Source: Clostridia bacterium (lineage in GTDB: Bacteria; Bacillota; Clostridia; Oscillospirales; CAG-382). Taken from it: a stretch of 64,000 nt of DNA. Below are positions 9,142 through 59,150 of the stretch, in pieces (position 1 is the first letter of the stretch; every line of letters starts with the position of its first letter). The stretch is taken from positions 4,112 to 68,111 of the forward strand of contig JAFYUZ010000087.1 of assembly GCA_017549365.1 (NCBI GenBank), read 5' to 3'. The position numbers and the translations under genes were made by a program. Under the pieces are notes generated by a model that saw nothing but the letters and a program-made list of their open reading frames with translations, did not search any database and was not told the DNA's origin.

Positions 9142-9810
9142 TCGCAAAATCCTCCTATGCTTTGCTTGTTAAGCAGCCTGCCACGTGCCGTATGGCACCC
9201 GACACAGGGCCTGCCGCTATAATCTTATTTTATAAAATCTTCGCAAATGCCTTGAAAACAGGGCATTTTTTCGCAAAATCCGCGTGCCAAGAAATTATAG
9301 AAGCAAGACAAGATCACGCGCTTTTCGGCGAATTTTCAGCGTATTTTCGGGCAGAAAACACCAAAAAAACACACAAAAAATCGAAAAAAGGGCGCAAAAA
9401 TGCCTTTGTTACAGAAATAGAATACCACACAACGCATTTTTTGTCAAGTGCAAGGGGATTCTGCGCCCCTTACCTTCCCTGCCCTTTTGCCCGCCGTCTT
9501 TCTCTCCTGTTTTTTACGAAAGAGTGTTCGATGTTTTTTATCTCTGAAAAAAGTTGCACAAATTCAAAATTTACAATTTAGTCAGTTTTTTCAAACTTGT
9601 CAAAAACCCTTGTTTTTCAAGGCTTTTTCGCACTTCATTTTTGATGTGTCAAGAGAAAATATATAATTTTGAATTTGGTTTATTTTATATTCAAAATTTA
9701 TAGTGCGCCCAAAATGTGTTGCCGTCTTAACAATTATCAGGTATTTTCTGCCATTTATTGCATTTTTTAGTTGTGCGTTTTGCACAAATTTCGGCACAAA
9801 ATTTCTACAC

Positions 9811-9874: not shown

Positions 9875-11794
9875 TCAAAGCTCCTCGAGCTCCGCGGTTG
9901 CCTTGTCCCAGAGCTCGTAAAACTCGTCAAGTCTTGCCTGCACCTCGTCCTGCTCGCGGTACAATGCCTCGGTTTTCACATAGTCCGCCCCTGCCTGCGC
10001 CATTTCAATATCTATCTGCGCAAGTCTTTCTTCGCAGTCGGCAATCCCCTTTTCGGATTCGGCAAGCTGCTTTTCAGCTTTTCTGCGGCGGCTTTTTTCA
10101 AGCTTTGCCTTTTGGTAGTCGTTCTTTTCGTCTTTTTCGGTGTTATCCGCAAAAGAAGCGCCGGACGTTGCCGCGTGGGTGTTTTTGTAGTTGCAAAAAT
10201 CCTCGTAGCCGCCCTTGTAATCGAAATATCCGTCGGTTTTCAGCTCGAGTATGCGGGTTGCAAGCTTATTTATAAAATATCTGTCGTGAGATACGGCAAT
10301 GACCGTGCCGTTGTATCCGAGTATGGCATCCTCCAGCACCTCGCGGGTGGATGCATCAAGGTGGTTGGTCGGCTCGTCAAGAATAAGCAGATTCAGCTCG
10401 TCAAGCATCATCTTTGCAAAGGTAAGCCTTGCCTTTTCGCCACCCGAAAGCACTGAGACCTCTTTGAAAACGTCCTCGGCCTTAAAAAGAAAACGGGCAA
10501 GGGCGCCGCGGATCTCGGCCTGTTTTTTGTCGGGATATTCGCTCCAAAGCTCCTCGAGCACGGTGTTTTGGGGATTGAGTCCCTGGTGCTCCTGGTCGTA
10601 GTAGCCTATTTTTATCTTGTTGATGTATTCAAAAACTCCGCTGTCCTGCGAAAGCTTGCCGCACAGTATCTTGAGCATGGTGGATTTTCCCACGCCGTTT
10701 TCGCCGAAAAGAAACATTCTTTCTTTCGAATGAAGCACAAACGAAACGTCGGAAAAAAGCTGTTTTTCGCCGTACGCCTTTGACAGCGACGAGACCTCGA
10801 GAATGTTGTCGGACAAAAGCTCGCGCGAGCCTGCCGAAAAGTGCATCGAGATGCTTTCGGGCAGAGCTTTGGGTTTTTCAAGCTTGTCCATGCGCTCGAT
10901 GGCTTTCATTCGGCTTTCGGCGGCAATAATGTTGCGCTCGCGGTTCCATCTGCGCTGGTTTTCAATAAAAGCTTCCATGCGCTCTATCTCGCGGCGCTGG
11001 TTTTTGTAGTGCCGCTCGTCGATCTCGCGGTCTTTTTCCTTTTGCTTTACAAATCCGCTGTACGGAAGATTGTAAAGCTTTGCCTCGCAGTTTTCTATCT
11101 CGAGCGTTTTTGTGGTTACCTTGTCAAGAAAATATCTGTCGTGCGAGATAACGAGAAGTGTCTTTTTGTAACCTGCAAGAAAAGCTTCAAGCCACTCAAC
11201 CGACGGAATGTCCAGATGGTTGGTCGGCTCGTCAAGCATCAGGATGTCGGGCTCGGAAAGAAGAGTGCGCGCAAGGGCAAGCCTTGTTTTCTGTCCTCCC
11301 GAAAGGGTCTCGATGGAATCCTTTTGTCTTTCCTCGTCAAAGCCCAGAGCGCAAAGCATGCTGCGGATGCGACTTTTGTACTCGTATCCGCCGTTTTTGC
11401 GAAAGCTTTCTTCGAGTCGGGTGTATTCCCCCGCAAGGCGCATGTGCATGGCATTGTCGTTTTCGGCATCCATCTGCGCCTGCAACTCTTCAAGGCGCTT
11501 TTCGTCCCGGACAAGCTCGGGAAAAGCCATCAGCATTTCGGCATATATTGCCCCCGTCGAATCAAAAGAGGCGTTCTGCTCGAGGTATGCAACCTTAAGA
11601 TCCTTTGAAAAATTAACGCTTCCGCTGTCATTTCTGACCTCGCCCGCGATTATTTTGAAAAGCAATGATTTTCCCGCGCCGTTTACTCCCACAACACCCA
11701 CTCTGTCGCCGCCGTGGATGCCAAAGGTTATCTTATCAAGTATAACGTCGCCGCCAAACGCCATGCAGACGTCCGACAAATTCAAAACTATCAA
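9875..11794 (-). CDS. ABC-F family ATPase (two ABC domains, Uup-like coiled-coil tail)
   Basis: Two Walker A motifs (GVNGAGKS, GENGVGKS) and two signature motifs (LSGGQKTRLALARTLL, LSGGEKARLTFAKMML). Charged inter-domain linker, no TM segments, C-terminal coiled coil. TTG start with AAGGAG 7 nt upstream. Confidence 0.92.
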   Translation of the reverse strand: MIVLNLSDVCMAFGGDVILDKITFGIHGGDRVGVVGVNGAGKSLLFKIIAGEVRNDSGSVNFSKDLKVAYLEQNASFDSTGAIYAEMLMAFPELVRDEKRLEELQAQMDAENDNAMHMRLAGEYTRLEESFRKNGGYEYKSRIRSMLCALGFDEERQKDSIETLSGGQKTRLALARTLLSEPDILMLDEPTNHLDIPSVEWLEAFLAGYKKTLLVISHDRYFLDKVTTKTLEIENCEAKLYNLPYSGFVKQKEKDREIDERHYKNQRREIERMEAFIENQRRWNRERNIIAAESRMKAIERMDKLEKPKALPESISMHFSAGSRELLSDNILEVSSLSKAYGEKQLFSDVSFVLHSKERMFLFGENGVGKSTMLKILCGKLSQDSGVFEYINKIKIGYYDQEHQGLNPQNTVLEELWSEYPDKKQAEIRGALARFLFKAEDVFKEVSVLSGGEKARLTFAKMMLDELNLLILDEPTNHLDASTREVLEDAILGYNGTVIAVSHDRYFINKLATRILELKTDGYFDYKGGYEDFCNYKNTHAATSGASFADNTEKDEKNDYQKAKLEKSRRRKAEKQLAESEKGIADCEERLAQIDIEMAQAGADYVKTEALYREQDEVQARLDEFYELWDKATAELEEL

Positions 11795-14841: not shown

Positions 14842-14875
14842 AAAGCCCGACTTTTGTCGGGCTTTTCTATTTGGT
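14842..14875. terminator. bidirectional intrinsic terminator (BNR gene and groEL converge)
   Basis: Stem AAAGCCCGAC pairs with GTCGGGCTTT around a TTTT loop. A-rich 5' flank and T-rich 3' flank. Confidence 0.8.
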
Positions 14876-14886
14876 TTGATATCAAA

Positions 14887-16518
<1,632 letters not shown>

Positions 16519-16534
16519 TTACCTCCTAAAAAAA

Positions 16535-16896
<362 letters not shown>

Positions 16897-24563: not shown

Positions 24564-26615
24564 TTATTCTTCTGCTGTTGCGTTTTCTGCAATGATCTTC
24601 TGTGCAAGCGGTCCCGGAACTTCTTCGTATCTTTCAAAAGCATATTCGAAGTCGCCTCTGCCCTGAGTCATGGCGCGCAGGGTGATGGAATAGGTGGTCA
24701 TTTCGGACTGGGGAACTTCTGCCTCGATGATGGTGAGGTCAGCATTGTCGCCCTTGCCTGTGCCGAGAATTCTGCCGCGGCGCTTGCTTACGTCGCCGAT
24801 AACGTCGCCCATGTAATCATCGGGAACAGAAACGGTAAGCTTGCCAACCGGTTCGAGGATGGCGGGATTTGCGTTTTTAAGCTCTTTGTATGCAAGACCT
24901 GCCGCAAGTTTGAACGCCATTTCGGACGAGTCAACGTCGTGGTACGAACCGTCAAAGAGGTCTGCACAAAGGCCAACCATCGGGAAGCCTGCCAAAACGC
25001 CCTTGAGCATACATTCGGAAAGTCCCTTTTCAACTGCGGGATGGAAGTTCTTGGGAACCGAGCCGCCAAAGGTGCTTTCGGAGAACACAAGTCCGTCTTC
25101 ACCGGGAGCAAAGTGGATCTTTACGTGGCCGTACTGACCCTTACCGCCCGACTGCTTCTTGTGCTTACCTTCTGCGTCGATCTTCTTCTTTATGGTTTCG
25201 CGGTATGCGATCTTGGGTTCGGAATACTGAACCGAAGTGCCAAAACGTGTCTTGAGCTTTGCGGTTACGATATCAAGGTGCTGTTCGCCAAGGCCGTAAA
25301 CGAGCATCTGCTTTGTTTCGGCATTGTTTTCATAGCGGAGGGTAAGGTCTTCTTCGAGAAGCTTGGAAATACCGCCCGAGATCTTGTCTTCGTCGCCCTT
25401 TGTGGCAGGAACGATACCCATGCCGTAGTAGGGAGTCTTGTACTTGATCTTCTTGTACTGTGTGGTCGAGCCAGAAGTGAGGGTGTCGTTGGTGTTGGTG
25501 TCCGAAAGCTTTGCGGTCATACCGATGTCGCCGCAGGCAAGCTCGTCAACTTCGGTCTGCTTCTTGCCCTTAAGGGTGTAGATATGCGAGAACTTTTCGT
25601 TGTCACCGGTGGTGAGGTTTTTGAGAACAGCGTCACGCTTGAGAGTGCCGTTCATAACCTTGAAGTAGGACATTTTTCCTACGAAGGGGTCGGCAACCGT
25701 CTTGAAAACAAAGATTGCGGGATCTCCTTCGGGATCGATCTTGACATATTCGTCGTCAAGGTCACGCTCGTGCTTCTTGCCGAAGGGATTCGGGAAGGAG
25801 TTGGAGATAACGTAAAGCAGGGATGTAATACCGTCAAGAGTTGCGGCAGAGCCTACCATAACGGGAGCGATGCTTCTGTCGTTGATACCCTTGCACAGAG
25901 CTTCTGTCATTTCGGCTTCGGTAAATTCTTCTTCTGCAAAGAACTTTTCCATAAGCTCGTCGGAGGTGGAAGCAAGAGATTCCATAAGAAGCGATCTTGC
26001 CTCGGCGATGTTGTCAGAGAACTTGGGATCGATGGCAATTTCCTTTGCCTCGGTGCCGTTGTATGCATACGCCTTGTTCTTGATGAGGTTTACGATACCG
26101 ACGGTCTTTCTGTTTTCAAAGATCGGGATGGTAACGGGGCAGATGGTCTTGCCGAATTTTTCACGCATGGCGTCGATTGTTGCCGAGAAGTTGGCGTTTT
26201 CGTCGTCGATCTTGTTGATAAAGAATGCCTTGGGCACGGTTGCCTCTGTGGCATATTCCCACGCGATCTCACAGCCTGCGTCCACACCGCTCTTGGCATC
26301 CATGACGATAAGAGCACAGCCCGAAACACGCAGACCCTGCATGACCTCGCCCGAAAAATCAAGATAACCGGGAGTGTCGATGATATTTATCTTTTTGTCG
26401 TTATAATAAGCGGGAGCGATAGCAGTGGAGATAGAAAATTTGCGCTTTATTTCCTCAGGGTCATAGTCACAGATGGTTGTTCCGTCTGCTGTCTTTCCAA
26501 GTCTGTCTGTCCCCTTCGAAATATACAGCATTGCTTCGGCAACCGAAGTTTTGCCGTTTCCTCCGTGTCCCAGCAAGCATATGTTGCGGATGTTTTCAGT
26601 TTTTGTAGTTGCCAT
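24564..26615 (-). CDS. EF-G-like translational GTPase paralogue with non-canonical G motifs
   Basis: 683 aa, collinear with EF-G domains I-V. G1 GHGGNGKTS, G3 DTPGYLDF (Tyr where the catalytic His normally sits), G4 NKID. Confidence 0.9.
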   Translation of the reverse strand: MATTKTENIRNICLLGHGGNGKTSVAEAMLYISKGTDRLGKTADGTTICDYDPEEIKRKFSISTAIAPAYYNDKKINIIDTPGYLDFSGEVMQGLRVSGCALIVMDAKSGVDAGCEIAWEYATEATVPKAFFINKIDDENANFSATIDAMREKFGKTICPVTIPIFENRKTVGIVNLIKNKAYAYNGTEAKEIAIDPKFSDNIAEARSLLMESLASTSDELMEKFFAEEEFTEAEMTEALCKGINDRSIAPVMVGSAATLDGITSLLYVISNSFPNPFGKKHERDLDDEYVKIDPEGDPAIFVFKTVADPFVGKMSYFKVMNGTLKRDAVLKNLTTGDNEKFSHIYTLKGKKQTEVDELACGDIGMTAKLSDTNTNDTLTSGSTTQYKKIKYKTPYYGMGIVPATKGDEDKISGGISKLLEEDLTLRYENNAETKQMLVYGLGEQHLDIVTAKLKTRFGTSVQYSEPKIAYRETIKKKIDAEGKHKKQSGGKGQYGHVKIHFAPGEDGLVFSESTFGGSVPKNFHPAVEKGLSECMLKGVLAGFPMVGLCADLFDGSYHDVDSSEMAFKLAAGLAYKELKNANPAILEPVGKLTVSVPDDYMGDVIGDVSKRRGRILGTGKGDNADLTIIEAEVPQSEMTTYSITLRAMTQGRGDFEYAFERYEEVPGPLAQKIIAENATAEE

Positions 26616-26978: not shown

Positions 26979-28418
26979 ATGAACGATACAAAATTTGATC
27001 TCGACTCGCTTTTTGAAAGCCGCAAACACGAGATACTGACCACAAACTCCTCGTTCTTTTCAAAAGGACCGATCTATTACGTTTCGCCCGACGGCGACGA
27101 CGAAAACGACGGCAAAAGCCGCAACACCCCCTGGAAAACCTTGAAAAAAGTTTCGTCGGCACCTCTTGTGCGCGGCTCGGTGGTTCTTTTCGAGCGAAAC
27201 CGCACCTTCCGCGGAGTTCTTAACTGTTGCGAGGGGGTTATATATTCTGCCTACGGCAAGGGTGCAAAGCCCCGTCTTTTTGCCTCGCCCGAAAACGCGG
27301 CGTATCCCGCGGCGTGGGAAAAACTTGTGGGCACCGAAAATATATGGAAATACACCAAAGAAATAACCGACTGCGGAACTTTGGTTTTTGACGGCGGAGC
27401 ATACCATTCGATAAAGGAGATCCCATCATATATTGACGGAAAATACATTGTCCGCGGCGCCGACATTCCCTTTGACGTAAAAAAAGACATACGCTACGAT
27501 CTTGGCATCTTCTGCGATTGTGCAAAGGTTATGCGCCGCGACCTTCCCCTGCCCGATATGTATAACCGCGAAAACACGGGAACACTCTATTTGAGATGCG
27601 ACAAAGGCAACCCCGGACTTCTCTTCTCGAGCATCGAGCTTTGTGTGAGAGAAAACGGAGTTATTCCCAAAAACGGCGTTACGATAGATAACCTTTGCAT
27701 AAAATACGCCGGTTGTCACGGCATTGGCGGCGGAAACGTAAAAGGTCTTACAGTCCGCCATTGTGAGATCGGACGCATCGGAGGATGCGTGCAGTTTTAT
27801 AATCCCGACGGACGTGTGACAAGATACGGCAACGGAGTTGAAATATACGTTTCGTGCGCGGAGTATACTGTGGAAAACTGCTATCTTTACGAAATATACG
27901 ATGCCGCCATCACCCATCAATTCAAGGGAAAAAGCCCGTCCCCCTGCACCATGACAAACGTTGTTTACAAAAACAACCTCATCGAAAACTGCGTTTATTC
28001 GATCGAATATTTCCTTGACCAGGACGATTGCGACGAGCAGATCATGTCGGATATCCTTATCGAGAATAACTTTATGCGCTGTGCGGGCTATGGTTTTGGC
28101 ACCCAGCGCCCCGACGGCACAACGCCCGCCCACATAAAGGGCTGGGACCACAAAAACCCTGCAAGAAATTTCGTTATCAAAAACAACATCTTCGACCGCT
28201 CGGGACACATGATGATCCACGCAGGCTTTGCGGACGAAGCCTTTAAGCCGCAGTTTGTCGGCAACACCTACGTCCAGAATCGCGGCGGCGAATTTTTGAG
28301 AGTGGGAAAAAACCCCACCTCCATGATATACTTTGACGGAAACGCAAAAGAAAACGTGAAAAACATTCTTGGCGACACCATTGCAACCGTGGTTTTTTAT
28401 AAAGGAGAAGACAGATGA
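26979..28418 (+). CDS. right-handed parallel beta-helix (pectin-lyase-fold) protein, no signal peptide
   Basis: Cap motif IYYVSPDGDDENDGKSRNTPWKTLKKV, then coil-like repeats (NLCIKYAGCHGIGG, VRHCEIGRIGG, NCYLYEIYDAAIT). Start moved to ATG 26979 (AAAGGAG RBS). Confidence 0.75.
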   Translation: MNDTKFDLDSLFESRKHEILTTNSSFFSKGPIYYVSPDGDDENDGKSRNTPWKTLKKVSSAPLVRGSVVLFERNRTFRGVLNCCEGVIYSAYGKGAKPRLFASPENAAYPAAWEKLVGTENIWKYTKEITDCGTLVFDGGAYHSIKEIPSYIDGKYIVRGADIPFDVKKDIRYDLGIFCDCAKVMRRDLPLPDMYNRENTGTLYLRCDKGNPGLLFSSIELCVRENGVIPKNGVTIDNLCIKYAGCHGIGGGNVKGLTVRHCEIGRIGGCVQFYNPDGRVTRYGNGVEIYVSCAEYTVENCYLYEIYDAAITHQFKGKSPSPCTMTNVVYKNNLIENCVYSIEYFLDQDDCDEQIMSDILIENNFMRCAGYGFGTQRPDGTTPAHIKGWDHKNPARNFVIKNNIFDRSGHMMIHAGFADEAFKPQFVGNTYVQNRGGEFLRVGKNPTSMIYFDGNAKENVKNILGDTIATVVFYKGEDR

Positions 28419-30097
28419 TATACCGCATTTCCGATTTTGAAAATTCCCACAAAAGCCTTGTTGCGGCAATAAATTTTGCCGTGCAGGCGTTGGACGAGGG
28501 CGACACCCTTGAGCTTGAGGACAAGGTGTACGACATTTTCCCCGACGGTGCTTTTAAAAAATACTATTGCATCTCAAACAACGACAAGGGCGAAAAACAG
28601 ATTGCCTTTCCCGTTATCGGCAAAAAGAACGTGACGATCGACGGACGCGGGTCAAAGCTTGTTTTCCACGGCGATATTCTGCCCTTTGTCATAGACGAAA
28701 GCGAAAACGTAAAGGTAAAGAACTTTTCAATAGACTATTCCTCGCCAAAGTACGCGCAGGGAAAGGTGATAGAAGCAAGCCTTAAAAGAACCGTGCTTGA
28801 ATATGACGGCGACGAGTTCAATTGCCGCGTGGTGGACGGAAACCTTTCGTTTTTCAGCAAGACCGACGGCTGGGAAAACACAGTCGAGCAATGCCTGACA
28901 CTGGAGTTTGACGCCGACAAAAAAGCCCCCGATCCTTTTGCTCCCACCTATTTTATCTACACGGGCAAGCCCAAGGACCACGGTTTTCTCGGCAGAATGT
29001 TCAAGGATATAAAGGCGCGCGAGCTTTCGGAAAACGTTATTGAGCTGTGCGGCAATTTCACCCGTGAGCACAAGGTGGGCAATTATCTGATAAGCACCCA
29101 CTGCGGACGCCATTATCCCGGCATTTTCGTTGCCGATTCAAAGGACGTTGACCTTTACGGCATTGATCTTTTGCACACCTACGCCATGGGCGTTATCTGC
29201 CAGACCAGCGAAAACATCTCTCTTGAAAAAATAGTTGCGCAGGCAAAGAAGGATACGCCCAGAATGCTTTGCGTAAACGCCGATGCCACCCATTTTGTCA
29301 ACTGCCGCGGAAAAATATCCTTTAAAAACTGCAAGTTTGTCAATATGATGGACGATGCCTGCAATATCCACGGAATATATCTGAAAGATCCCAAAAAAGT
29401 GGACGAAAACGCCTTTGTGGCAGGCTTTGGACATTTTCAGCAGGTGGGCATCAATATCTTCCGCAAGGGCGACGAGGTGCTTATCACAAATCCCAAAAAT
29501 ATGAAAGAAAAGCAAGTTTATACGGTTGAAAGATCGGTTCTTCTTTCGGAAAACGAGATAAAAGTTTTTGTAAAAGAGCCGCTTTGTGACATTCCCGCAG
29601 GATACGTTGCCGAAAACCTTTCGTCCGCCCCCGATATTCACGTATGCTCCTGCGAGACGGGCAACAACCGTCCGCGAGGTTTCCTGCTTGCCACCCGCGG
29701 AAAAACGCTGGTGGAGGACAGCACCTTTTACAATATGTACGCAGGCGTTGTGGCAGGTTGCGAAATGCGCAACTGGTACGAAAGCGGACCTGCCGCCGAC
29801 ATCACTGTGCGCAACTGTAATTTCAAAAACAGTGCGTATGCAGGCGGTTTTGCCATGACCGTCGTGCCAAATCTCTACTCTCCCGAAAACGCAGGCAGTA
29901 TCAACGGCAGAGTGCTTGTTGAAAACAACAGATTTGAACTGCACGAAAAACGATTCCTGTGCGTTCGCAACACCGCCGAAGTCACCTTCAGAAACAACGA
30001 ATATATCTGCAACACCTCGCTTCCCTCACACCCTGTCGGAAACCCCGACGGCATCGATGTTTTGTGGTGCGAAAAGACAGATATTGAAAAAATATAA
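28415..30097 (+). CDS. right-handed parallel beta-helix protein (possibly glycosidase-like), no signal peptide
   Basis: 560 aa, ATGA overlap with the upstream gene. Repetitive coils (CNIHGIY, VCSCETGNNRPRGFL, VRNCNFKNSAY, VENNRFE). Any resemblance to GH110-type enzymes is only an impression. Confidence 0.65.
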   Translation: MIYRISDFENSHKSLVAAINFAVQALDEGDTLELEDKVYDIFPDGAFKKYYCISNNDKGEKQIAFPVIGKKNVTIDGRGSKLVFHGDILPFVIDESENVKVKNFSIDYSSPKYAQGKVIEASLKRTVLEYDGDEFNCRVVDGNLSFFSKTDGWENTVEQCLTLEFDADKKAPDPFAPTYFIYTGKPKDHGFLGRMFKDIKARELSENVIELCGNFTREHKVGNYLISTHCGRHYPGIFVADSKDVDLYGIDLLHTYAMGVICQTSENISLEKIVAQAKKDTPRMLCVNADATHFVNCRGKISFKNCKFVNMMDDACNIHGIYLKDPKKVDENAFVAGFGHFQQVGINIFRKGDEVLITNPKNMKEKQVYTVERSVLLSENEIKVFVKEPLCDIPAGYVAENLSSAPDIHVCSCETGNNRPRGFLLATRGKTLVEDSTFYNMYAGVVAGCEMRNWYESGPAADITVRNCNFKNSAYAGGFAMTVVPNLYSPENAGSINGRVLVENNRFELHEKRFLCVRNTAEVTFRNNEYICNTSLPSHPVGNPDGIDVLWCEKTDIEKI

Positions 30098-30144
30098 CAA
30101 AAAACCATTGCAATGCCATGTAAGCTTTGCAATGGTTTTGCTTT

Positions 30145-30285
30145 TTATTCAATAATCTCCCGTATGGCACTTTCGGCGTCCTTTACCTCCTTGTGAAAGG
30201 CGGCGGCAGGCACGCGCAGAGCACCCGAGCCGAGTATTATCATCTGCTCGGCGGCATCGGAGGTGGCAACCCTTACGCGGTGTTA
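30145..30285 (-). other. in-frame TAA (30283-30285) plus 45 further in-frame codons encoding the missing C-terminal part of the NYN/Rae1 domain
   Basis: Same frame as the 30283-32715 CDS: ...VSHELSK * HRVRVATSDAAEQMIILGSGALRVPAAAFHKEVKDAESAIREIIE * (second stop at 30145-30147). The VATSD...EQ...G.GALR string matches the conserved YacP/Rae1 C-terminal half as I recall it. Confidence 0.8.
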
Positions 30286-32715
30286 TTTTGAAAGCTCGTG
30301 GGATACCTTTTGAATGTACGAATCGGCAGTCTCTGCCTCTTTGGTATAAACAACGCTGATATTGCGGAAATTTTCGATGCTTCCGGGGTTTTTCTTCACT
30401 CTGTACGCATCAAAAACAAGGATTATTTTGGTGCCGCAAAAACCCTGGTAGTTGCACAGACGATGTATCAGGGTGGTGCGGGCAAGATCAAGGCTTTGGG
30501 ATGCCTGCTTTTTCAGCTCGTCCCAGGCAAAAATGATGTTGTAGCCGTCAACAAGAAGATATTCTTCGCCGTCAAAGATCTGCGGCTTTGCCTTGGGCGC
30601 TTTTGGCTTTTCGACAATGCTTTTTGGCGCTTCGTGCCGCACTTTTCCGCCGTCCCTTTTGCGTATCGGGCCGTAGGTCCGCTCGAATATCGCCATAAGC
30701 TCGGTGTCGCTTGCAACGCTTGCAAGATAGTTTTCGGCACGGCGCTTTATTTCAAGCTGTTGCTCGATCGCCTCGTTGTCGCGGTTCAGCACGCTTTCTA
30801 TGTGCATATAGTTTTCGACCTCGTCCCATTTGACAAGAAAACCTGCCCCGTGGGCGCAAAAAACCGAATCACAGGAGTTTTCAAGGTCGGCGTCTGCATC
30901 ATAGCCTATTTCTTCAATCACCTTTTGCGCGTCGGCACATTCCTCATATCCGCGAAGGGTGCAGATTATTCTGCCCTTTCCGTGCGAAAAATCCGCAAGC
31001 TCAAGGCCGTAATGCTGGATCTTTGAAACGGGCGCGTGCCCTGTGACGGTGGTCATTTCGCCGTCCGATTCGGGGGGATTCATGACAGCACCAAAGCGCT
31101 GCATATCAGTCATGACTCTGCCCGTCATGCTGTCGGGCACGGTTATTTCGTAGTTGTAATAAGGCTCGAGAAGCACGCTTTTTGCGCGGCGCAGTCCGTG
31201 ACGCACGGCACGATAGGTCGCCTCGCGGAAATCTCCCCCTTCGGTATGCTTTTTGTGGGCTCTGCCTGCCACAAGGGTTATTTTCATATCGGTTATGGGA
31301 GCGCCCGTCAAAACACCCACGTGGGTCTTTTCTTCAAGGTGGGTGAGGATCAATCTTTGCCACGAGCGCAAAAGCTCGTCGGTGGAGCAATCTGTGCAGA
31401 ACGAAAGCCCCGTTCCGCGCTCGGCAGGCTCAAGTATCAGATGCACCTCGGCATAGTGGCGCAAGGGCTCGTAATGTCCCACGCCCTCCACCGTGTCGGC
31501 AATCGTTTCGCGATATACCACCCGTCCCGCATCAAACGAAACGTCCATCAAAAGACGGGTGCTTATGAGATTTTTTATTATTTCAAGCTGTATCTGACCC
31601 ATCAACAGAAGCTTTATTTCCGAAAGGCGTCTGTCAAAGGTTATGCGAAGGGTGGGTTCTTCCTCCTCCAAAAGCTTAAGCTTTGAATACGCCGTCACGG
31701 GGTCTGCCTTTTCGGGCAGGATAACGCGATAGTTGAAAACAGGCTCAAGCACCGGCACGGGAAGCTCTTTTTCAAAGCCGAGGGTGTCACCTGCCGCGGC
31801 CATTGAAAGACCGGTTACGGCACATACCGTGCCTGCGGGCACTTCTGTTACCGATTCAAACTTTGCACCCGAATATATTCTGATACCGTCGATCTTTTCG
31901 TTCCATTCCTCGCCTGCCGCTGTTTTTCCCGAAAGGCTGTCGCGCACACAAAGTGCGCCGCCCGTAACCTTGAGATGCACAAGACGCTTGCCGTTTTCGT
32001 CGCGGGATATCTTGTATATTCTTGCGCCAAAGCTGTCGGGATATTGGGGCTGTTTCATGTATTCGCAGATGCCCGAAAGAAGTCGGTCTGCCCCCTGATT
32101 TTTCAGCGCCGAACCGAAATAGCAGGGAAAAAGCTTTGCCGACGATACGGCGGACGAAATATCCTCCTGCGAAAGAGAACCCGTTTCAAGATATTTTTCC
32201 ATCAAAGCTTCGTCGCACATAGAAACGTCGTCGAAAGAAGAAAGTCGGTCTTCTTCGATGCAGGAGGACGAAAGCCTCTTTGTGATGCCGCGCATCAGGG
32301 TTTCGCGGTCGGCAGACGGCACGTCCATTTTGTTCACGAAGATAAAGGTGGGTATAGAGTGCTTGCGTAAAAGCCGCCACAAGGTCTCGGTGTGGCTTTG
32401 CACCCCGTCAATGCCGCTGATGACAAGGATCGCCGCATCAAGCACGCAAAGGGTGCGCTCGGTTTCAGAGGAAAAATCCACGTGTCCCGGGGTGTCGAGC
32501 AGGGTGAACTCAAAATCGTTGCCGTAAAGAATTGCCTGCTTTGAAAAAATGGTGATGCCGCGGTCACGCTCGAGCTCGTGGGTGTCAAGAAAAGTGTCGG
32601 CGTGGTCAACTCTGCCGAATTTTCTTATGTTCCCCGTGGTGTAAAGAAGTGCTTCGGAAAGTGTGGTCTTTCCCGAGTCTACGTGGGCAAGTATTCCCAC
32701 CGTCAGCTTTTTCAC
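30283..32715 (-). CDS. TetM/EF-G-like translational GTPase fused to an N-terminal portion of a Rae1/YacP NYN ribonuclease domain (ends at a premature-looking TAA)
   Basis: G1 AHVDSGKTT, switch I RGITI, G3 DTPGHVDF, G4 NKMD. About 640 aa are collinear with ribosomal-protection-type factors. A basic linker follows, then residues 717-810 (nt 30286-30567): EEYLLVDGYNIIFAW...KIILVFDAYR...VVYTKEAETADSYI (NYN_YacP-like). GTG start with AGGAGG 6 nt upstream. Confidence 0.85.
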   Translation of the reverse strand: MKKLTVGILAHVDSGKTTLSEALLYTTGNIRKFGRVDHADTFLDTHELERDRGITIFSKQAILYGNDFEFTLLDTPGHVDFSSETERTLCVLDAAILVISGIDGVQSHTETLWRLLRKHSIPTFIFVNKMDVPSADRETLMRGITKRLSSSCIEEDRLSSFDDVSMCDEALMEKYLETGSLSQEDISSAVSSAKLFPCYFGSALKNQGADRLLSGICEYMKQPQYPDSFGARIYKISRDENGKRLVHLKVTGGALCVRDSLSGKTAAGEEWNEKIDGIRIYSGAKFESVTEVPAGTVCAVTGLSMAAAGDTLGFEKELPVPVLEPVFNYRVILPEKADPVTAYSKLKLLEEEEPTLRITFDRRLSEIKLLLMGQIQLEIIKNLISTRLLMDVSFDAGRVVYRETIADTVEGVGHYEPLRHYAEVHLILEPAERGTGLSFCTDCSTDELLRSWQRLILTHLEEKTHVGVLTGAPITDMKITLVAGRAHKKHTEGGDFREATYRAVRHGLRRAKSVLLEPYYNYEITVPDSMTGRVMTDMQRFGAVMNPPESDGEMTTVTGHAPVSKIQHYGLELADFSHGKGRIICTLRGYEECADAQKVIEEIGYDADADLENSCDSVFCAHGAGFLVKWDEVENYMHIESVLNRDNEAIEQQLEIKRRAENYLASVASDTELMAIFERTYGPIRKRDGGKVRHEAPKSIVEKPKAPKAKPQIFDGEEYLLVDGYNIIFAWDELKKQASQSLDLARTTLIHRLCNYQGFCGTKIILVFDAYRVKKNPGSIENFRNISVVYTKEAETADSYIQKVSHELSK

Positions 32716-32800: not shown

Positions 32801-34072
32801 TCAGATCTTGAACAAATACATCTGACCTGCCGCCGCCCAAAGGTTGATGGTGTAGCGGTCTTTGTCGCAAAGCTCTGCGTTGTTTTCCCGTCTCGGATCG
32901 AAATTGTGAGAATCGTTGTTGGGGTAGACGTCATATACTCTCCAACTGTTACCATATCCCTTTATTTCATACGGATCACATTTTTTACGGTTAAATGTGA
33001 TATTGAAATTATTGTCGTTTACAGTTGTGGAATTGTTCACCACCGCCACATATTTATCACCGTTTGCAGATGTGAAAAAGCTTACGATCATGTCGGTGTT
33101 TTTCAGAGATCTCACATCGAGAATAATATCGCTGATCCCTTGTTTGAATGGCGGATATCCTCCCCACGAGCGTCCCACGTGGTAGCATTCATCAAGTCGC
33201 AGATCTTTGAAAATGTCGGCCGTGGAGGCAAGAAAATAGCGGGAAACACTTTTGAATTTGTAAAAATGCGGAGTTTTTTCGCCGAAAATATCAATGGCGG
33301 CGCCATGGGTGTTGGTTGCAAACGGGATGTCGTCCAAGGTGAACCAGATTATACCCGTGCATCCGCCCGCAAGGGCTGTGTTGAACTGCCAGCGCACTGC
33401 CCCCTCGTCGGGGACGGCATAATCCCAGTGACCTATTGCCAAAAGGCAGGTCCAAAGCGGGATCCCGAGAGTTTGTGCAAGCTCGTTATATATGCGCATA
33501 TCGTGAAAATATGTGTGTATGCCTTCTTCTGTACCTCGCATCTGATTATAGCGGTCGTATGAAAGCACCGGGGCATTATATCTTTCTTTCATAAACGACA
33601 GATAGTTTTCCTGCGTTTCAAAGCCCATATACGGTGGATCTGATTCGTCCCACAGGGGAAGCAGATTCAAGAAGGGCAAAAGCTCGGGCGCTTGCTCGCG
33701 CTGTATCCTGAAAGCTGTTATCACATCCTCCATATCTTTTTTCCATGGCTCGTCACCGATGAAAAATCCAAGAGTTGCAGGATGCTTGCCAAAATCTTTG
33801 TAGACGGCGTTGAATTTTTCGCGGTATGCTTCGGGATCTTCCGATGCGCCTTTCCACAAAAGTCGTTTGTCCTGAATGATTACTTTGATATCGTGTTTGT
33901 GGCATTCGTCAAGGAGTCTTATAAAAGCGTCCTTGTTGGTTTCGTTTTCGTTCCATCCGTCGTCACAGATATTGACGGTAAGGCCGATCTCCTTCCAAAG
34001 CTTTACTTCGTCGATCTGTTTTTCGTCAAATCCTTTTACCGGCCACGCCAAGATCGGAAATTTGTTTAACAT
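32801..34072 (-). CDS. hypothetical TIM-barrel glycoside-hydrolase-like protein, no signal peptide
   Basis: 423 aa. Start moved to ATG 34072 (AAGGAG RBS). Alternating beta/alpha pattern with GFFIGDEPW and LNLLPLW segments reminiscent of GH42-like barrels. Function not established. Confidence 0.55.
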   Translation of the reverse strand: MLNKFPILAWPVKGFDEKQIDEVKLWKEIGLTVNICDDGWNENETNKDAFIRLLDECHKHDIKVIIQDKRLLWKGASEDPEAYREKFNAVYKDFGKHPATLGFFIGDEPWKKDMEDVITAFRIQREQAPELLPFLNLLPLWDESDPPYMGFETQENYLSFMKERYNAPVLSYDRYNQMRGTEEGIHTYFHDMRIYNELAQTLGIPLWTCLLAIGHWDYAVPDEGAVRWQFNTALAGGCTGIIWFTLDDIPFATNTHGAAIDIFGEKTPHFYKFKSVSRYFLASTADIFKDLRLDECYHVGRSWGGYPPFKQGISDIILDVRSLKNTDMIVSFFTSANGDKYVAVVNNSTTVNDNNFNITFNRKKCDPYEIKGYGNSWRVYDVYPNNDSHNFDPRRENNAELCDKDRYTINLWAAAGQMYLFKI

Positions 34073-34263
34073 GATAATACTCCTTTTCGTTTGTTTCTCT
34101 ATACTATAACAGAAAAACACCGTTTTTTCAACACCAAATTAAAAAACATTTCAAAGGTATGTGTATTTTCTTGACATTGACGACAAATGTATATATAATT
34201 TAATAAAGCATACCCACAAAGACGGGTTTTTACAAAATTGTATCAGAATAAGGAGAGCTTATT

Positions 34264-35526
34264 ATGAGTATCTATTACGTATCTGCACAAGGATGTGACA
34301 CAAACGACGGCCTTACGCCCGAAAGCGCATGGCAGACAATCGGCAAAATGATGGAATCGGTATCGGGCGGCGATACGATAAAGCTTCGTTGCGGCGACAC
34401 TTTTTACGGCAACATCCATCTTCCCACGGGTATTTCCGAGGATGAACCCACCGTGCTCACAAGCTATGGCGAGGGTGAAAAACCCACCGTTTCCCAGTAC
34501 AAAATGCCCGTTCACGGCGCATGGGAAAGACACATTGACGGCGTGTGGAAGCTTGACCTTACCGATACCTCAAAATTTACGGGCAACACAAAGGATATCG
34601 ATACAAACGTCGGCTTTATGAAGGTTAACGGCGAATATAAATACCGCAAGAGATTTCACCTTGCCGACCTTGCATACCCCTGGGATTTCTACTGCGACGA
34701 TCAGTACGTTTACGTTTTGTCCAACACCCGTCCCGACGAGATAACAGACGATGTAAAGATCGCCTGCAACATCCGTTGCATCAGCATGAGCAGCAACCTC
34801 AAGGTTGAAAACATCATCTGCCGCGGCGCAGGCGCCCACGGCATTTCGGGAACGTCGGTCAACTGCCACATCAGCAACTGCGAATTCCACGAGCTGGGCG
34901 GATCGCGCCTGGGCGGAATCGAACGCCGCGGCAGATTCAATACCGTCCGCTACGGCAACGGCGTTGAGTTTTGGTCCAACTCGACAAACGGCTCGGTGGA
35001 AAACTGCAGATTTTCCGAAATTTACGACGTTGCCATCACCATCCAGGGCAACCGAGTTGTAAGAAACTGGGACAACATGATCTTCCGCAACAACGTTATC
35101 TGGAACTGCACCCAGGGCTTTGAGATCTGGGCATCCACAGAGCTCGACGAGCCCGTGGGCATCACCAACAGCTATTTTGAAAACAACGTGGTCGTTGACT
35201 GCGGATATTGCTGGGGTTATGAAGCACGCCCCAACAAGGGTTGCTCGTCCCACCTTATGATCTACAACATCGGCGTGCCGCTTTGCGATATAACCATCCG
35301 CAACAACGTTTTCACACGCGCTCAGACATCTTTTATGTACAAGAGCGGAAAGGTAACCTCTTTCCCCAAGGATTGCAAGATATACGACAACGTTATCGTC
35401 CGCCACGAGGGACAGGAGCTGGGCAACCGCGCCGCCTGCACTTATGAAGAAAACATGGTGTTTGAAGAAATGATCCTTTCGCAAAACCAGGTATTCAACA
35501 CCCCCAAGTACAGAAACGAAAACTGA
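34264..35526 (+). CDS. right-handed parallel beta-helix protein, paralogous in its cap to 26979-28418
   Basis: MSIYYVSAQGCDTNDGLTPESAWQTIGKM cap. Coils NIICRGAGAHGISG, ISNCEFHELGG, VENCRFSEIYDVAIT, FRNNVIWNC. AAGGAG RBS. Confidence 0.75.
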   Translation: MSIYYVSAQGCDTNDGLTPESAWQTIGKMMESVSGGDTIKLRCGDTFYGNIHLPTGISEDEPTVLTSYGEGEKPTVSQYKMPVHGAWERHIDGVWKLDLTDTSKFTGNTKDIDTNVGFMKVNGEYKYRKRFHLADLAYPWDFYCDDQYVYVLSNTRPDEITDDVKIACNIRCISMSSNLKVENIICRGAGAHGISGTSVNCHISNCEFHELGGSRLGGIERRGRFNTVRYGNGVEFWSNSTNGSVENCRFSEIYDVAITIQGNRVVRNWDNMIFRNNVIWNCTQGFEIWASTELDEPVGITNSYFENNVVVDCGYCWGYEARPNKGCSSHLMIYNIGVPLCDITIRNNVFTRAQTSFMYKSGKVTSFPKDCKIYDNVIVRHEGQELGNRAACTYEENMVFEEMILSQNQVFNTPKYRNEN

Positions 35527-35529
35527 CAA

Positions 35530-36243
35530 ATGACAGAGTTTTCAAGAAGCAGACTTCTGCTCGGCGACAAAATCGAAAATCTTTACCGCGCCCACGTTGC
35601 CGTATTCGGCATCGGGGGCGTGGGCTCGTATGTGGTTGAAGCTCTTGCTCGCACGGGGGTCGGAAAGCTTTCGCTTTTCGACAACGACACCGTGAGCACA
35701 TCGAACATAAACCGCCAGCTGGTGGCACTGCATTCGACGGTCGGAAAGCCGAAAACTGCGGTGGCAAAAGAGCGCATTGCGGATATAAACCCCAAAGCAG
35801 AAGTGTTTGAATATCCTGTGTTTTTCACGGCGGAAAACGCGGACAGTATTGACTTTTCGCAGTTTGACTATGTGGTGGACGCCATCGATACCGTTTCGTC
35901 AAAAATACTTCTTGCACAGATATGTCAGGAAAAAAATATCCCGATAATAAGCTCGATGGGCACGGGCAACAAGCTCGATCCCACACAGTTTGAGATCTGC
36001 GATATTTCAAAAACCAGCGTCTGCCCTCTTGCACGCGTTATGCGCAGAGAGCTTAAAGTCCGCGGCATCAAAAAGCTGAAGGTGCTTTATTCAAAAGAAG
36101 AGCCGATATCCCCACAATATGACGAAAACAGCGAGGAAAAGGGAAACTTGGGAAGAAAAGCTCCGGGAAGCATATCTTTCGTTCCCTCCTGCGCAGGGCT
36201 TATCATCGCGGGCGAGGTTATAAAAGACATTTGCAAACAATAA
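35530..36243 (+). CDS. tcdA: tRNA threonylcarbamoyladenosine dehydratase (ThiF/E1-like)
   Basis: VAVFGIGGVGSYVVEALARTGVGKLSLFDNDTVSTSNINRQ. The length (237 aa) and C-terminal region are typical of TcdA/CsdL. Confidence 0.85.
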   Translation: MTEFSRSRLLLGDKIENLYRAHVAVFGIGGVGSYVVEALARTGVGKLSLFDNDTVSTSNINRQLVALHSTVGKPKTAVAKERIADINPKAEVFEYPVFFTAENADSIDFSQFDYVVDAIDTVSSKILLAQICQEKNIPIISSMGTGNKLDPTQFEICDISKTSVCPLARVMRRELKVRGIKKLKVLYSKEEPISPQYDENSEEKGNLGRKAPGSISFVPSCAGLIIAGEVIKDICKQ

Positions 36244-49234: not shown

Positions 49235-52200
49235 ATGAAAAAAATACTTTCTCTTATTCTTTCGGTCTTTATGCTGCTGCCTGCGGCAGTGGTATATCCG
49301 ACAAGTGTGGGCGCTTCGGAAAATACGGCATACGTCAGCACCGACGGCGTCATCACAGGCTTTGACGGCACAGTTTACACCTCGATATCCTCGGCTCTTT
49401 CTGCTCTTTCCGCAGGAGATGCAACCATCTATCTCGAAGGTGTTGACACCCTGCCCGTAACACCCGACCTTTCAAAGCACGCGGGCAAAACGCTGAAAAT
49501 TGTCGGTTACAACAATTCGGCAAACGGCAATGTTGTTCAATTCAAAAACGCCACAAAATCTTTTATCCCCACGGGCGGTGCAAACATCGTTTTTGACAAC
49601 ATCACCGTAAAGCACGCCGACGGCTCGACGACCGAAGACTGGATATTCCCCTCGGACGGCAGCATCACCTTCGGTGAAAACTGCCTTTACGAGCACGGCT
49701 ACCGTGCCGACAAAAATCTTAATCTTAAAATGCACATCGGTTCGTACTATGCAAAAAACGGCGGAACGATAAACTTTGATTCCCCCGACGTTCAGTATGC
49801 AGAGACCGGCTCGATCGCAGGCTATCTTGGCGGTACGACATCAAGCTTTACCACCGAGGGTGACGTGGTCTACAACTTCAATGCGGGAATCTTTGACGGA
49901 GTTTACGGAGGCATGCGCAACAGCACCACAGGATTTGCCACCCTTAACGGCGACGTTTATTACAACTTCAACGGCGCTGATCTTTCATCAAATGCCACCT
50001 TTGCCATGGGAAACCTCAAAAACGGCGTTCTCAACGGAAACATTCTCTTTACTTTTAACGGCGGCAAAATAAACCGCACGCTTTATATGGGCTCGTCGGG
50101 CAATATCACCGATTCGTACACCGCCTTCGGAAATATGGCGGCGATCATCAACGCCGACAGCATCAAAAGCGACGGCAACTCCTTCACTCTCAAAATTGTT
50201 GACGGAAAACTGCCCACAAATCGCGGCAAGCTTTTCGTTATCATAAACCACGCCGAAGATCTTGCCTCAAACAGCAATGCGCAGATAACCGTTTCGGCAA
50301 CCGCCATCGACTATTATCTTTCGGTAAAAGGCGGAAAACTTTCTCCCGTATTTGCAAAATCCGCCTCGGGTACTGTGGGAAGATTCCTCGGATTCAATTC
50401 TGTCCCCGACACCGAAGGTCTTGTTCCTGCCATCGGCGGAACAGCTCTTACCAAAAATTCGTCGGGCTATTACACCGTGACAAGCTCGGCTTCTCTTCAG
50501 GAAATAACCTTTATCGAAGAGAAAAATCAGGAAGAACAGCCTGTTGAGGGCGCGGTCTACGTCAGCACCGACGGTGTCATTTCGGGCTTTGACGGCACAG
50601 TTTACACCTCGATATCCTCGGCTCTTTCTGCCCTTCCCGCAGGAGATGCAACCATCTATCTCGAAGGTGTCGACACCCTGCCCGTAACACCCGACCTTTC
50701 AAAGCACGCGGGCAAAACGCTGAAAATTGTCGGTTACAACAATTCGGCAAACGGCAACGTTGTTCAATTCAAAAACGCCACAAAATCCTTTGTCCCCACG
50801 GGCGGTGCAAACATTGTTTTTGACAACATCACCGTAAAGCACGCCGACGGCTCGACGACCGAAGACTGGATATTCCCCTCGGACGGCAGCATCACCTTCG
50901 GCAAAAACTGCCTTTACGAGCACGGCTACCGCGCCGACAAAAAGCTTGATCTTAAAATGTATATCGGCTCGTATTATGCCAAAAACGGCGGAACGATAAA
51001 CTTTGATTCTCCCGACGTTCAGTATGCAGAGACAGGCTCGATCGCAGGCTATCTTAGCGGTACGACATCAAGCTTTACCACCGAGGGCGACGTGGTTTAC
51101 AACTTCAACGCAGGCACATTTGATAACATCTACGGCGGTATGCGAAACGGCACGTCGGGATTTGCCACCCTTAACGGCGACGTTTATTACAACTTCAACG
51201 GCGCCACCCTTTCTTCGGGCAAGACGCTTGCCACAGGCAATATTTCTAACGGCATCATCAACGGCAACATCTTCTTCACCTTCAACGGCGGCAACGTAAA
51301 CCGCACCTTAAAGCTCGGCTCGACAAGCGGTGTAAACAACGAATATTGCGCCTTTGGCAACACCGTGGTTGTGATAAACCGCGACAAGATCGCCATTGAC
51401 GGCGCACCCTTTACCCTTGCGGTATCCGATGGTCAGCTTCCCGACAAAAACCACGGCAAGATTTTCGTCATCATCAACCACATCGAAAAGGACGGCGGTA
51501 ACATCACTGTAAACTCCGCTTCGCTTGATTATTACGTTCAGGCAAACGGCGGCAGCGTGACCCCCGTTTTTGAAAAGACACAAAACGGCAAGGTCGGCGA
51601 ATTTCTCGGCTTTGATATCGTTTCCGACACAGAAGGTCTTGTTCCTGCCATCTTTGGCAAAATGCTTTCAAAGAACGAAAACGGATATTACCACATAGAT
51701 CCTTCGGTTTCGCTTCAGACTGTGGAATTTGCAAAAGAAGAAGACTTGATCTCAAACGTAACCCTGAAATCGGGAATTTCGGGTCAGGCGGATATTTCGG
51801 CACGGTATTCCAACGGAAAGCCCTATACCATCCCCGAATGTCCCTTTACCCCCGCAAGCGGCAAGGTATTTGCCTGCTGGACGTATGACGGAAAAGACTT
51901 TTTCCCGGGCGACGTCATTGAAATCACCCAAAGCATGACCTTCGACGCAAAATACACAGACAAAGATTCGCCCTACGTTTTCTACGTCAACACAGAAAGC
52001 GGTGCGGACAGCGCAGACGGTCTTTCGGCAGCTTCGGCGTTCAAAACTCTCTCGGCGGCTGTGACTGCCATAAATTCCGCAGGTGTCAGTGAGGGCAGAA
52101 TCCACCTTGTCGGTATTTCCGACTATGAAAACATTCCCAAGCACACAAAAAAGATCACTCTTATCGGCGGCGCCATCACGGCGGATGCCACCGTGGTCCT

Positions 52201-58826: not shown

Positions 58827-59150
58827 TCATTGGAATATAAAAGAATAAAGATCGCAATCCGAAAGGAATATTTCAAGTCTTACGTTCTTTCCCGAAAGAG
58901 CTGAAAGATCCTTTTCAAAATCAACGGGACGATCGACACTGTCGCCAAACAGGTTGCGGCTGTCATAGCCTTCGATGGCTTTTCCGTTTTCATCGCATAT
59001 TTTTATACGCAAAGAACCGAAAGCAGATGTTTTAAAATTTACCGAAAGCTTGTTTCCGTCAAATTTAAACGGCTTTGTCAGCACACTACCTCCCGATTTT
59101 TTCGCGTTCCACGAGTAAAAACCGTCAAGGCGCAAGGTATATCGAGTGAG
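58827..59150 (-). repeat. near-identical 3' segment shared with paralogue B (60349-60672)
   Basis: About 320 nt align at an offset of 1522 nt with only scattered substitutions. Upstream of this block the two genes are clearly more diverged. Confidence 0.85.

Follow-up and report, generated by a model that had tools for sequence, protein, structure and literature searches.

A private in-frame stop codon, probably a recent nonsense mutation, in the nuclease domain of a Tet-like GTPase-NYN_YacP fusion gene from a Clostridia bacterium

Structure of the interrupted gene

In the 64,000-nucleotide stretch of Clostridia bacterium DNA that we analysed (hereafter the window), the ORF list shows a minus-strand ORF at 30283-32715 with a GTG start, whose translation gives 810 amino acids ending in QKVSHELSK. 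Its 810 codons occupy 30286..32715, and the TAA that closes them is codon 811, at 30283..30285, where the minus strand reads CAC GAG CTT TCA AAA TAA CAC CGC GTA AGG GTT GCC ACC TCC GAT. Past this TAA the same frame stays open for another 45 codons, HRVRVATSDAAEQMIILGSGALRVPAAAFHKEVKDAESAIREIIE, until a second TAA at 30145..30147 on the same strand. These 45 codons (30148..30282, minus strand) were identified by Pfam, alignment and structural model as the remnant of a C-terminus, aa 812-856 of an 856-aa protein, and the second TAA was identified as the ancestral stop of the 856-aa gene from the ends of colinear conspecific genes.

Directly after the ancestral stop, RNA folding revealed an intrinsic-terminator-like hairpin with a U-tract (30087..30142, minus strand). 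The hairpin has a folding energy of -22.4 kcal/mol (z = -4.54, with none of 200 shuffled sequences equally stable) and is followed by UUUUUUGUUAUAUUUUUU; it was missed by a simple terminator scan and detected by direct folding. Since this terminator-like hairpin comes after the ancestral stop, the 45-codon tail would still lie within the transcript.

An open extension of this length is unremarkable on its own, as 17 of the 50 likely ORFs of the window stay open for 45 or more codons past their stops. The significance of the tail comes from its homology and its contiguous profile coordinates, and not from the open frame. An earlier note on this DNA had described the tail as having neither a start codon nor an RBS of its own. 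We likewise found no obvious Shine-Dalgarno sequence, but an in-frame ATG is present at 30243 (32-aa ORF). It is the sole in-frame start and falls downstream of the T-S-D motif described below; independent translation of the tail was rejected on this ground.

Annotation of the 810-aa ORF revealed a translational GTPase G domain (aa 4-221), EF-G-like domains II-V (aa 231-595), a linker and a partial NYN_YacP domain (aa 720-810), with Pfam matches to GTP_EFTU (6.6e-50), EF-G_D2, EFG_III, EFG_IV, EFG_C and NYN_YacP. The ORF has the layout of a single-ORF fusion, with GTP_EFTU, EF-G domains II-V and a C-terminal NYN_YacP, of which the private stop is the sole interruption. The match to the NYN_YacP profile (PF05991) covers positions 1-92 of 166 before the stop and positions 96-136 in the tail, and it scores 108.6 bits in the shortened ORF, 162.7 bits in the joined sequence (profile 1-136) and 38 bits in the tail alone (E = 2.1e-9), all three passing the curated cut-off of 24.6 bits. 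The sequence, the ORF and the Pfam coordinates bear out what the earlier note had claimed, namely that a TAA truncates the NYN domain before T-S-D and is followed by 45 conserved codons.

The D-G-Y-N motif, invariant across the family alignment, is present as LLVD723-G-Y-N. In the alignment to Rae1 and the AlphaFold model of an intact orthologue (P0001), strands S1-S3 with Asp723, Asp769 and Asp798 lie ahead of the stop, while strands S4 (813-818) and S5 (832-836), the C-terminal helix and the T-S-D motif with Asp820 (30256-30264, minus strand) lie beyond it. T-S-D aligns with T102-S103-D104 of Rae1, and the domain identities and the role of T-S-D as an active-site element had been read correctly from the start, as judged by Pfam, alignment and model.

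The NYN_YacP active site is predicted to require at least four conserved Asp residues (PMC5499597), and D7 and D81 are the catalytic residues of Rae1 that have been used experimentally, with a documented D7N D81N mutant (PMC10351889). All relatives, and a hypothetical read-through product, hold the four Asp in one polypeptide; the 810-aa product lacks D820, which comes after the TAA, and also lacks the complete PIN-like core of five parallel strands (S1-S5) seen in the model of P0001. Going by the alignment and the model, the 810-aa product would keep the GTPase/EF-G-like body and carry a crippled nuclease domain, and the allele would represent a nuclease loss of function. The truncation may destabilise the C-terminus as well.

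Codon 811 in related genes

Close relatives were retrieved through a homologous-protein search, followed by the contigs encoding those proteins. They comprise six conspecific copies from six independent metagenome assemblies (L081-L086, 92.2-98.6% nucleotide identity) and two further relatives, L167 and L168, with 86% and 84% amino acid identity, respectively. Each of the six conspecific proteins (98-99% identity) is 856 aa long, encoded by a gene of 2571 nt that is colinear with the window and ends in TAA at the ancestral-stop position, except for TAG in L082. Both of the more divergent relatives are 856 aa long too (810+1+45).

The earlier note had proposed to ask whether orthologues carry a sense codon at this position, and they do. 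All eight close relatives have Lys at codon 811, as AAA in seven (L081-L086 and L168) and as AAG in L167, and the column holds a sense codon in all 160 distant family loci listed (80/80 from GTDB species and 80/80 from metagenomes), where the residue is mostly K, S, N or D and T-S-D is kept. No shortened relative was present among the best 120 homologous proteins, and intact orthologues span 843-895 aa. The altered base is position 30285 of the plus strand, A in the window and T in the relatives, which on the coding strand is a single A>T transversion from AAA (Lys) to TAA. Codon 811 falls within a run of seven A in the relatives (TC-AAAAAAA-C), which is broken by the T of the window. The codon comparison thus showed the stop to be a single A>T change that only this sequence carries, with Lys as the ancestral codon.

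The best identity in the scan of genome contigs was 59% among the matches listed. The protein scan of metagenome contigs, which supplied the 80 metagenome loci, did not go beyond 66% identity to the family members it listed and included no conspecifics. The exact DNA pattern across the stop, with NNN at the codon, had no match in the metagenome contigs; it does occur in the JGI contig that L082 comes from, so this collection lacks the species. The exact 810-aa product has no record among 15 billion proteins, and no second assembly carrying the TAA allele was found among homologous proteins and metagenome contigs; the allele is thus without independent confirmation.

Among the intact genes, dN/dS is 0.02-0.06 in the tail and 0.04-0.11 in the remainder of the gene. 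The suggestion that the downstream 45 codons be checked for purifying selection has therefore a clear answer, which is strong constraint in intact genes, and codon comparisons showed the gene to be one of 856 aa under purifying selection in all relatives. In the window, the tail has no nucleotide difference from the four closest conspecifics. It is the undecayed remainder of the ancestral ORF and seems conserved only for want of time to decay.

Origin of the stop codon

We consider it probable that the TAA is a recent strain-private nonsense mutation, K811* (AAA>TAA), in a gene that is otherwise conserved and under selective constraint and that encodes a Tet(M)/EF-G-like GTPase with a fused YacP/Rae1-type NYN domain. 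AAA would have become TAA at codon 811 lately in this strain, translation would end there with an 810-aa protein, and the NYN domain would be left without S4, S5, the C-terminal helix and its fourth conserved Asp (D820 of T-S-D). Full-length protein, if any, would arise only through background misreading of UAA.

The alternative is a sequencing, assembly or consensus error, with the organism having AAA (Lys) at 811 and making a normal 856-aa fusion, which we regard as unlikely, though not negligibly so. The difference is a single base that is seen only here, the TAA allele occurs in no other public assembly, and the base lies within an A7 homopolymer, which some platforms and polishers handle poorly. 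Homopolymer errors, however, are usually errors of length rather than substitutions. The perfectly intact tail is what an artefact would also leave, and sporadic in-frame stops are present in other assemblies of the family, including the 1046-bp contig L116, these being either errors or polymorphisms.

In the 11.7 kb that run colinear with the conspecific sequences, 58 substitutions are private to the window, of which 34 are synonymous, 22 missense, 1 intergenic and 1 nonsense. There is not a single private indel, and the ratio of private missense to synonymous changes is inside the range of the other assemblies. Such a spectrum without indels is in keeping with genuine divergence of the strain and with a clean consensus, and it argues against error, as random errors would be about three quarters non-synonymous. 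At ordinary consensus quality, the number of stop-creating errors to be expected in about 12 kb is smaller than one by orders of magnitude, while real private changes are plentiful. With so many genuine private changes, a consensus error at a stop-creating position is a much rarer expectation than one nonsense change in a dispensable accessory gene. These points favour a real recent nonsense mutation over a consensus error.

The gene itself has acquired 6 synonymous and 3 missense changes on the branch of the window, which suggests that there was no long-term relaxation and that the stop is young. The tail shows zero private changes in 135 nt, but about 0.7 would be expected at 0.5% private divergence, so this zero is uninformative as to artefact or real mutation.

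A different possibility is that the TAA is both real and selected, in which case a costly ribosome-directed nuclease would be adaptively switched off, the EF-G/Tet-like GTPase kept, and a trace of full-length enzyme supplied by background misreading of the weak TAA-C signal. We hold this to be improbable; if true, the GTPase-Rae1 fusion, itself uncharacterised, would have a naturally occurring separation-of-function allele.

Read-through, reassignment and other recoding

The nonsense mutation, the sequence error and a read-through yielding two isoforms had all been put forward in the earlier note. The first two are in keeping with the sense codon in all relatives; the last finds no support. 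In functional (regulated or selected) read-through, the TAA would be retained to yield mainly a GTPase-only isoform, with a potentially toxic full-length nuclease at trace levels. The +4 base is C, which has been linked to inefficient termination (PMC5289835), the tail is intact, in frame and within the transcript, upstream of the terminator, and some low background of misreading occurs at every nonsense codon. Yet UAA, which both release factors recognise, is the stop least prone to read-through among the three (PMC5289835), and TAA terminates 20 of the 50 likely ORFs of the window.

More tellingly, column 811 holds a stop in none of the 168 relatives listed, hence nothing has been selected to work in this way; the stop is not conserved, and the extension is constrained only in the way of normal coding sequence within an unbroken ORF. 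The flanks are identical in the relatives with AAA and hence were not shaped for read-through. The stop is of the least leaky type, albeit with C at +4, and no stimulatory RNA structure was found 3′ of it, as the 91 nt from the stop onward are less stable than shuffled sequences (z = +1.08); the window has no suppressor tRNA, its sole tRNA being tRNA-Thr(CGT). We therefore regard functional read-through as very improbable. We also found no Rfam element and no second NYN copy within the window. Slippage by -1 on the A-run was set aside as irrelevant, with the tail in the zero frame and the run interrupted by the T of the window.

A genome-wide reassignment or ochre suppression of TAA, by which it would be read as an amino acid, has nothing in its favour except the in-frame position of the stop, and we consider it effectively refuted, with hardly any probability left to it. 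The 50 likely ORFs end in TAA (20), TGA (26) or TAG (4), in accordance with the earlier remark that TAA is a normal stop in this window, and those ending in TAA include the interrupted gene itself at its ancestral end. Moreover, the only tRNA in the window is the tRNA-Thr(CGT), and the conspecifics have AAA at 811. By sequence comparison, this is evidently either a recent knockout mutation of an ordinary kind or a wrongly called base, rather than programmed recoding.

Relation to known proteins

Fusions of a Tet-like translational GTPase to a YacP-like NYN RNase were noted in Clostridia by Atkinson 2015 (PMC4342817) and Matelska et al. 2017 (PMC5499597), so that the architecture is already known, in the literature since 2015-2017. 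The window gene shares with them the G domain, EF-G domains II-V, linker and C-terminal NYN_YacP, and its relatives are in Oscillospiraceae, Ruminococcus and other Clostridia; it differs in the private stop at codon 811 and the resulting incomplete NYN domain. Our literature search found no experimental study of the function of the fusion.

The NYN domain of the window aligns to residues 3-136 of B. subtilis Rae1/YacP (PDB 5MQ8, 5MQ9) with E = 2.5e-26, and has D-G-Y-N and the equivalents of D7, D81 and T-S-D104. However, Rae1 stands alone as a protein of about 170 aa, the domain in the window being tethered to an EF-G-like GTPase, and in the window allele the equivalent of Rae1 ~93-136, from the loop before S4, is beyond the stop. 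Ribosome-dependent endonucleolytic cleavage of mRNA is known only for the stand-alone B. subtilis Rae1 (PMC10351889, PMC12407103), which cuts at stalled or collided ribosomes (PMC12407103, PMC13622287), and the fusion is of some interest for this reason.

For the GTPase body, the best-scoring NCBIfam family is that of Tet(M)/Tet(O)/Tet(W), with all EF-G-like domains present, but Tet proteins have no nuclease domain. The score of 423.2 bits to NF012153 (tet_protect) is far under the 775-bit equivalog cut-off, which marks the protein as a paralogue rather than a true Tet protection protein.

With ordinary nonsense polymorphisms and young unitary pseudogenes, the locus shares a single-base stop, intact conspecifics and an undecayed remnant downstream; nothing sets it apart except that the stop happens to fall between the GTPase and what makes the nuclease catalytically complete. 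The discovery value is very small: through a single private base difference, a Lys codon reads as a stop. Should the allele be real, the strain would be a natural nuclease-truncated variant of an experimentally uncharacterised Tet-like GTPase-Rae1 fusion. For annotation, the locus should be flagged as an 856-aa gene that is disrupted or possibly mis-called, and not as an 810-aa GTPase with an orphan fragment.

In further support of a real nonsense mutation, private in-frame stops recur in this population, with the conspecific L081 carrying AGA>TGA (R206*) in the neighbouring gene.

A premature stop codon within a GTPase-NYN_YacP fusion gene

On the minus strand, the ORF at 30283..32715 starts with GTG and encodes 810 aa ending in ...QKVSHELSK at a TAA (30283-30285), after which the frame stays open for 45 further codons, HRVRVATSDAAEQMIILGSGALRVPAAAFHKEVKDAESAIREIIE, up to a second TAA at 30145-30147 (minus-strand reading: ...CAC GAG CTT TCA AAA TAA CAC CGC GTA AGG GTT GCC ACC TCC GAT...). 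Translation confirmed this arrangement, which the earlier note had described; its statement that the tail has no start codon did not hold, as an in-frame ATG is found at 30243, though situated after the T-S-D motif. Open extensions of at least 45 codons are commonplace, being found in 17 of the 50 likely ORFs of the window, and what carries the signal is the homology of the tail. By RNA folding, a strong hairpin (-22.4 kcal/mol, z=-4.5) with a U-tract lies beyond the second TAA; this is where the ancestral gene ended, and it leaves the tail inside the transcript.

Pfam annotation of the 810-aa ORF revealed GTP_EFTU, EF-G domains II, III, IV and C, and positions 1-92 of the 166 of NYN_YacP (PF05991), while the tail by itself matched positions 96-136 (E=2.1e-9) and is thus the missing part of the domain, as had been proposed. 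The joined sequence scored 162.7 bits for NYN_YacP versus 108.6 for the truncated one. Against B. subtilis YacP/Rae1 (PDB 5MQ8/5MQ9), the NYN part aligned over residues 3-136 (E=2.5e-26), with D723, D798 and D820 (of T-S-D) equivalent to D7, D81 and D104. The G motifs AHVDSGKT, DTPGH and NKMD are present in the translation. The top family for the GTPase body was tetracycline ribosomal-protection, at 423 bits, far under its cut-off of 775; this score makes it a Tet/EF-G paralogue rather than a Tet protein. Fusions of this Tet-like-NYN_YacP type were already reported in Clostridia, without functional data (PMC4342817; PMC5499597), and our literature search found no experimental work on them. The window-private missense changes in this gene are A51D (32564), which adjoins the switch-I RGITI motif, M62I (32530) and S441T (31395).

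Codon 811 in related sequences

Among the matches listed with the fusion, 80 species-level genomes (Oscillospiraceae, Ruminococcus and other Clostridia; best identity 59%) all carry a sense codon at the stop column (K 24, N 18, D 10, H 7, Q 7, and others) and run on through T-S-D to a C-terminus. The same column is sense in 80 additional metagenome loci, with T-S-D in 80/80. A large protein collection held six proteins 98-99% identical to the window ORF, each of exactly 856 aa (810+1+45), and no truncated relative was found among the best 120 proteins. Their genes, on the conspecific contigs L081-L086 from six independent assemblies, align colinearly with that of the window along 2571 nt at 92.2-98.6% identity, and codon 811 is AAA in all of them; it is AAG in a relative at 86% protein identity and AAA in one at 84%. 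Since every relative compared has a sense codon here, the point of a check suggested in the earlier note, the TAA is a single A>T substitution in the coding strand (position 30285 of the + strand), private to the window sequence.

Codons 809-811 (30283-30291 in the window) contain an A7 run (TC-AAAAAAA-C) in L081-L086 and the 84% relative; the T of the window breaks it. The run forms an in-frame A_AAA_AAA slippery-type heptamer; as it is absent as a conserved feature in distant relatives, it is probably incidental.

The second suggested check, purifying selection on the 45 codons, gave a dN/dS of 0.02-0.06 among intact genes, a constraint equal to that on the rest of the gene (0.04-0.11). The window tail showed zero differences to its four closest relatives; it is just the part of the ancestral ORF beyond the stop, still undecayed. 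The fusion gene gained 6 synonymous and 3 missense changes on the branch leading to the window, so that long relaxation has left no sign and the stop is young.

Nonsense mutation or base error

The conspecific contigs share 11.7 kb of colinear sequence with the window, at about 98.3-98.6% identity. This segment holds 58 window-private substitutions, of which 34 are synonymous, 22 missense, 1 intergenic and 1 nonsense, and no private indels; such a spectrum is that of real strain divergence and resembles what the other assemblies show for their own private changes. Two points count against a real mutation: the changed base lies inside a homopolymer, and the TAA allele has no independent confirmation. 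Random errors would be mostly non-synonymous, and long-read errors would bring indels. Because genuine private changes are so many, a single nonsense change falling in an accessory gene is far likelier than a stop-creating consensus error. Judged from the assembled sequences, the recent nonsense mutation raised in the earlier note is thus the probable reading, whereas its sequencing or assembly error is unlikely and its read-through was rejected.

How often nonsense alleles or errors turn up sporadically in this species' assemblies is indicated by L081, where the neighbouring 479-aa beta-helix gene (L081:8463-9902) has a private in-frame stop (AGA>TGA, R206*); the gene is intact in the window (26979-28418) and in L083. 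An unrelated in-frame stop within the NYN domain (L*NYQGY, Cys in others) was seen in L116, a 1046-bp metagenome contig of a distant family member, the sole case among 160 loci.

Read-through and recoding

No stop was found at the codon-811 column in the genome, metagenome, conspecific or 84-86% sets, and therefore nothing was selected there to operate by read-through. UAA, which both release factors read, is the least leaky of the stops, and C at +4, the weakest context, does no more than shift an already low background level (PMC5289835). The fold of the 91 nt that begin with the stop is less stable than that of shuffled sequence (z=+1.08), and the flanking sequence is identical in relatives carrying AAA. 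Programmed read-through was rejected on these grounds, leaving unsupported the suggestion that it keeps the nuclease at trace levels and yields two isoforms. Trace amounts of the full-length protein would still arise by background misreading, which occurs at every nonsense codon. A code change was also rejected, in agreement with the earlier note, as TAA ends 20 of 50 likely genes (TGA 26, TAG 4) and the only tRNA gene in the window is Thr(CGT). The codon-811 TAA is no recoding signal and no new kind of element, and we regard it as an ordinary premature stop, private to this strain, in a fusion gene whose type is known, a base error being less likely.

Predicted consequence for the protein

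In the AlphaFold model of the intact orthologue P0001 (56-sequence alignment, mean pLDDT 80), S1 (718-723, with D723), S2 (763-768, with D769), S3 (786-790) and the D798 helix lie before codon 811, and S4 (813-818), T-S-D820, S5 (832-836) and the C-terminal helix after it. The 810-aa product would retain an intact GTPase, while its nuclease domain would lack two of the five core strands as well as one catalytic Asp. The active site predicted for NYN_YacP has at least four Asp (PMC5499597), and Rae1 has been inactivated by mutating D7 and D81 (PMC10351889). From the model, the truncated domain is most likely inactive and possibly unstable. The allele has mild value in two respects only: it may be a natural nuclease-truncated form of a GTPase-Rae1 fusion that is functionally uncharacterised, and it is a caution for annotation.

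Other genes in the neighbourhood

At 3.5 kb from the fusion gene there is a second translational GTPase (683 aa, 24564-26615, minus strand) with a complete set of EF-G domains, a neighbour shared with L082 and L083. Another class of ribosome-associated factor is represented by an ABC-F-type ATPase (639 aa, 9875-11794, minus strand; two ABC_tran, ABC_tran_Xtn and ABC_tran_CTD). In the 92%-identical strain L082, a 0.9-kb insertion (L082:7617-8495), missing in the window, separates the fusion gene from a GLAA-like gene and holds an HTH_3 gene (67 aa) and a 180-aa ORF; HTH genes beside TetM-NYN fusions were noted by Matelska et al. 2017 (PMC5499597).

The 1127-aa ORF (5764-9147, minus strand) has an SBP_bac_1/8 solute-binding-protein domain in its C-terminal third only, its N-terminal ~660 aa being without domain assignment, and the 2051-aa ORF (49235-55390, plus strand) has a C-terminal calcineurin-like phosphoesterase (aa 1820-2006) as its sole Pfam match. 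No Pfam match at 1e-5 was obtained for the ORFs of 420-565 aa at 14854-16551, 58827-60314, 60349-61842, 32801-34120 and 34264-35526. The last, of 420 aa, is followed in the same frame, after a TGA and one codon, by a ThiF-family gene of 237 aa (34264-36243 together, plus strand); as every conspecific contig shows this same layout, the two are likely adjacent genes rather than a split gene.
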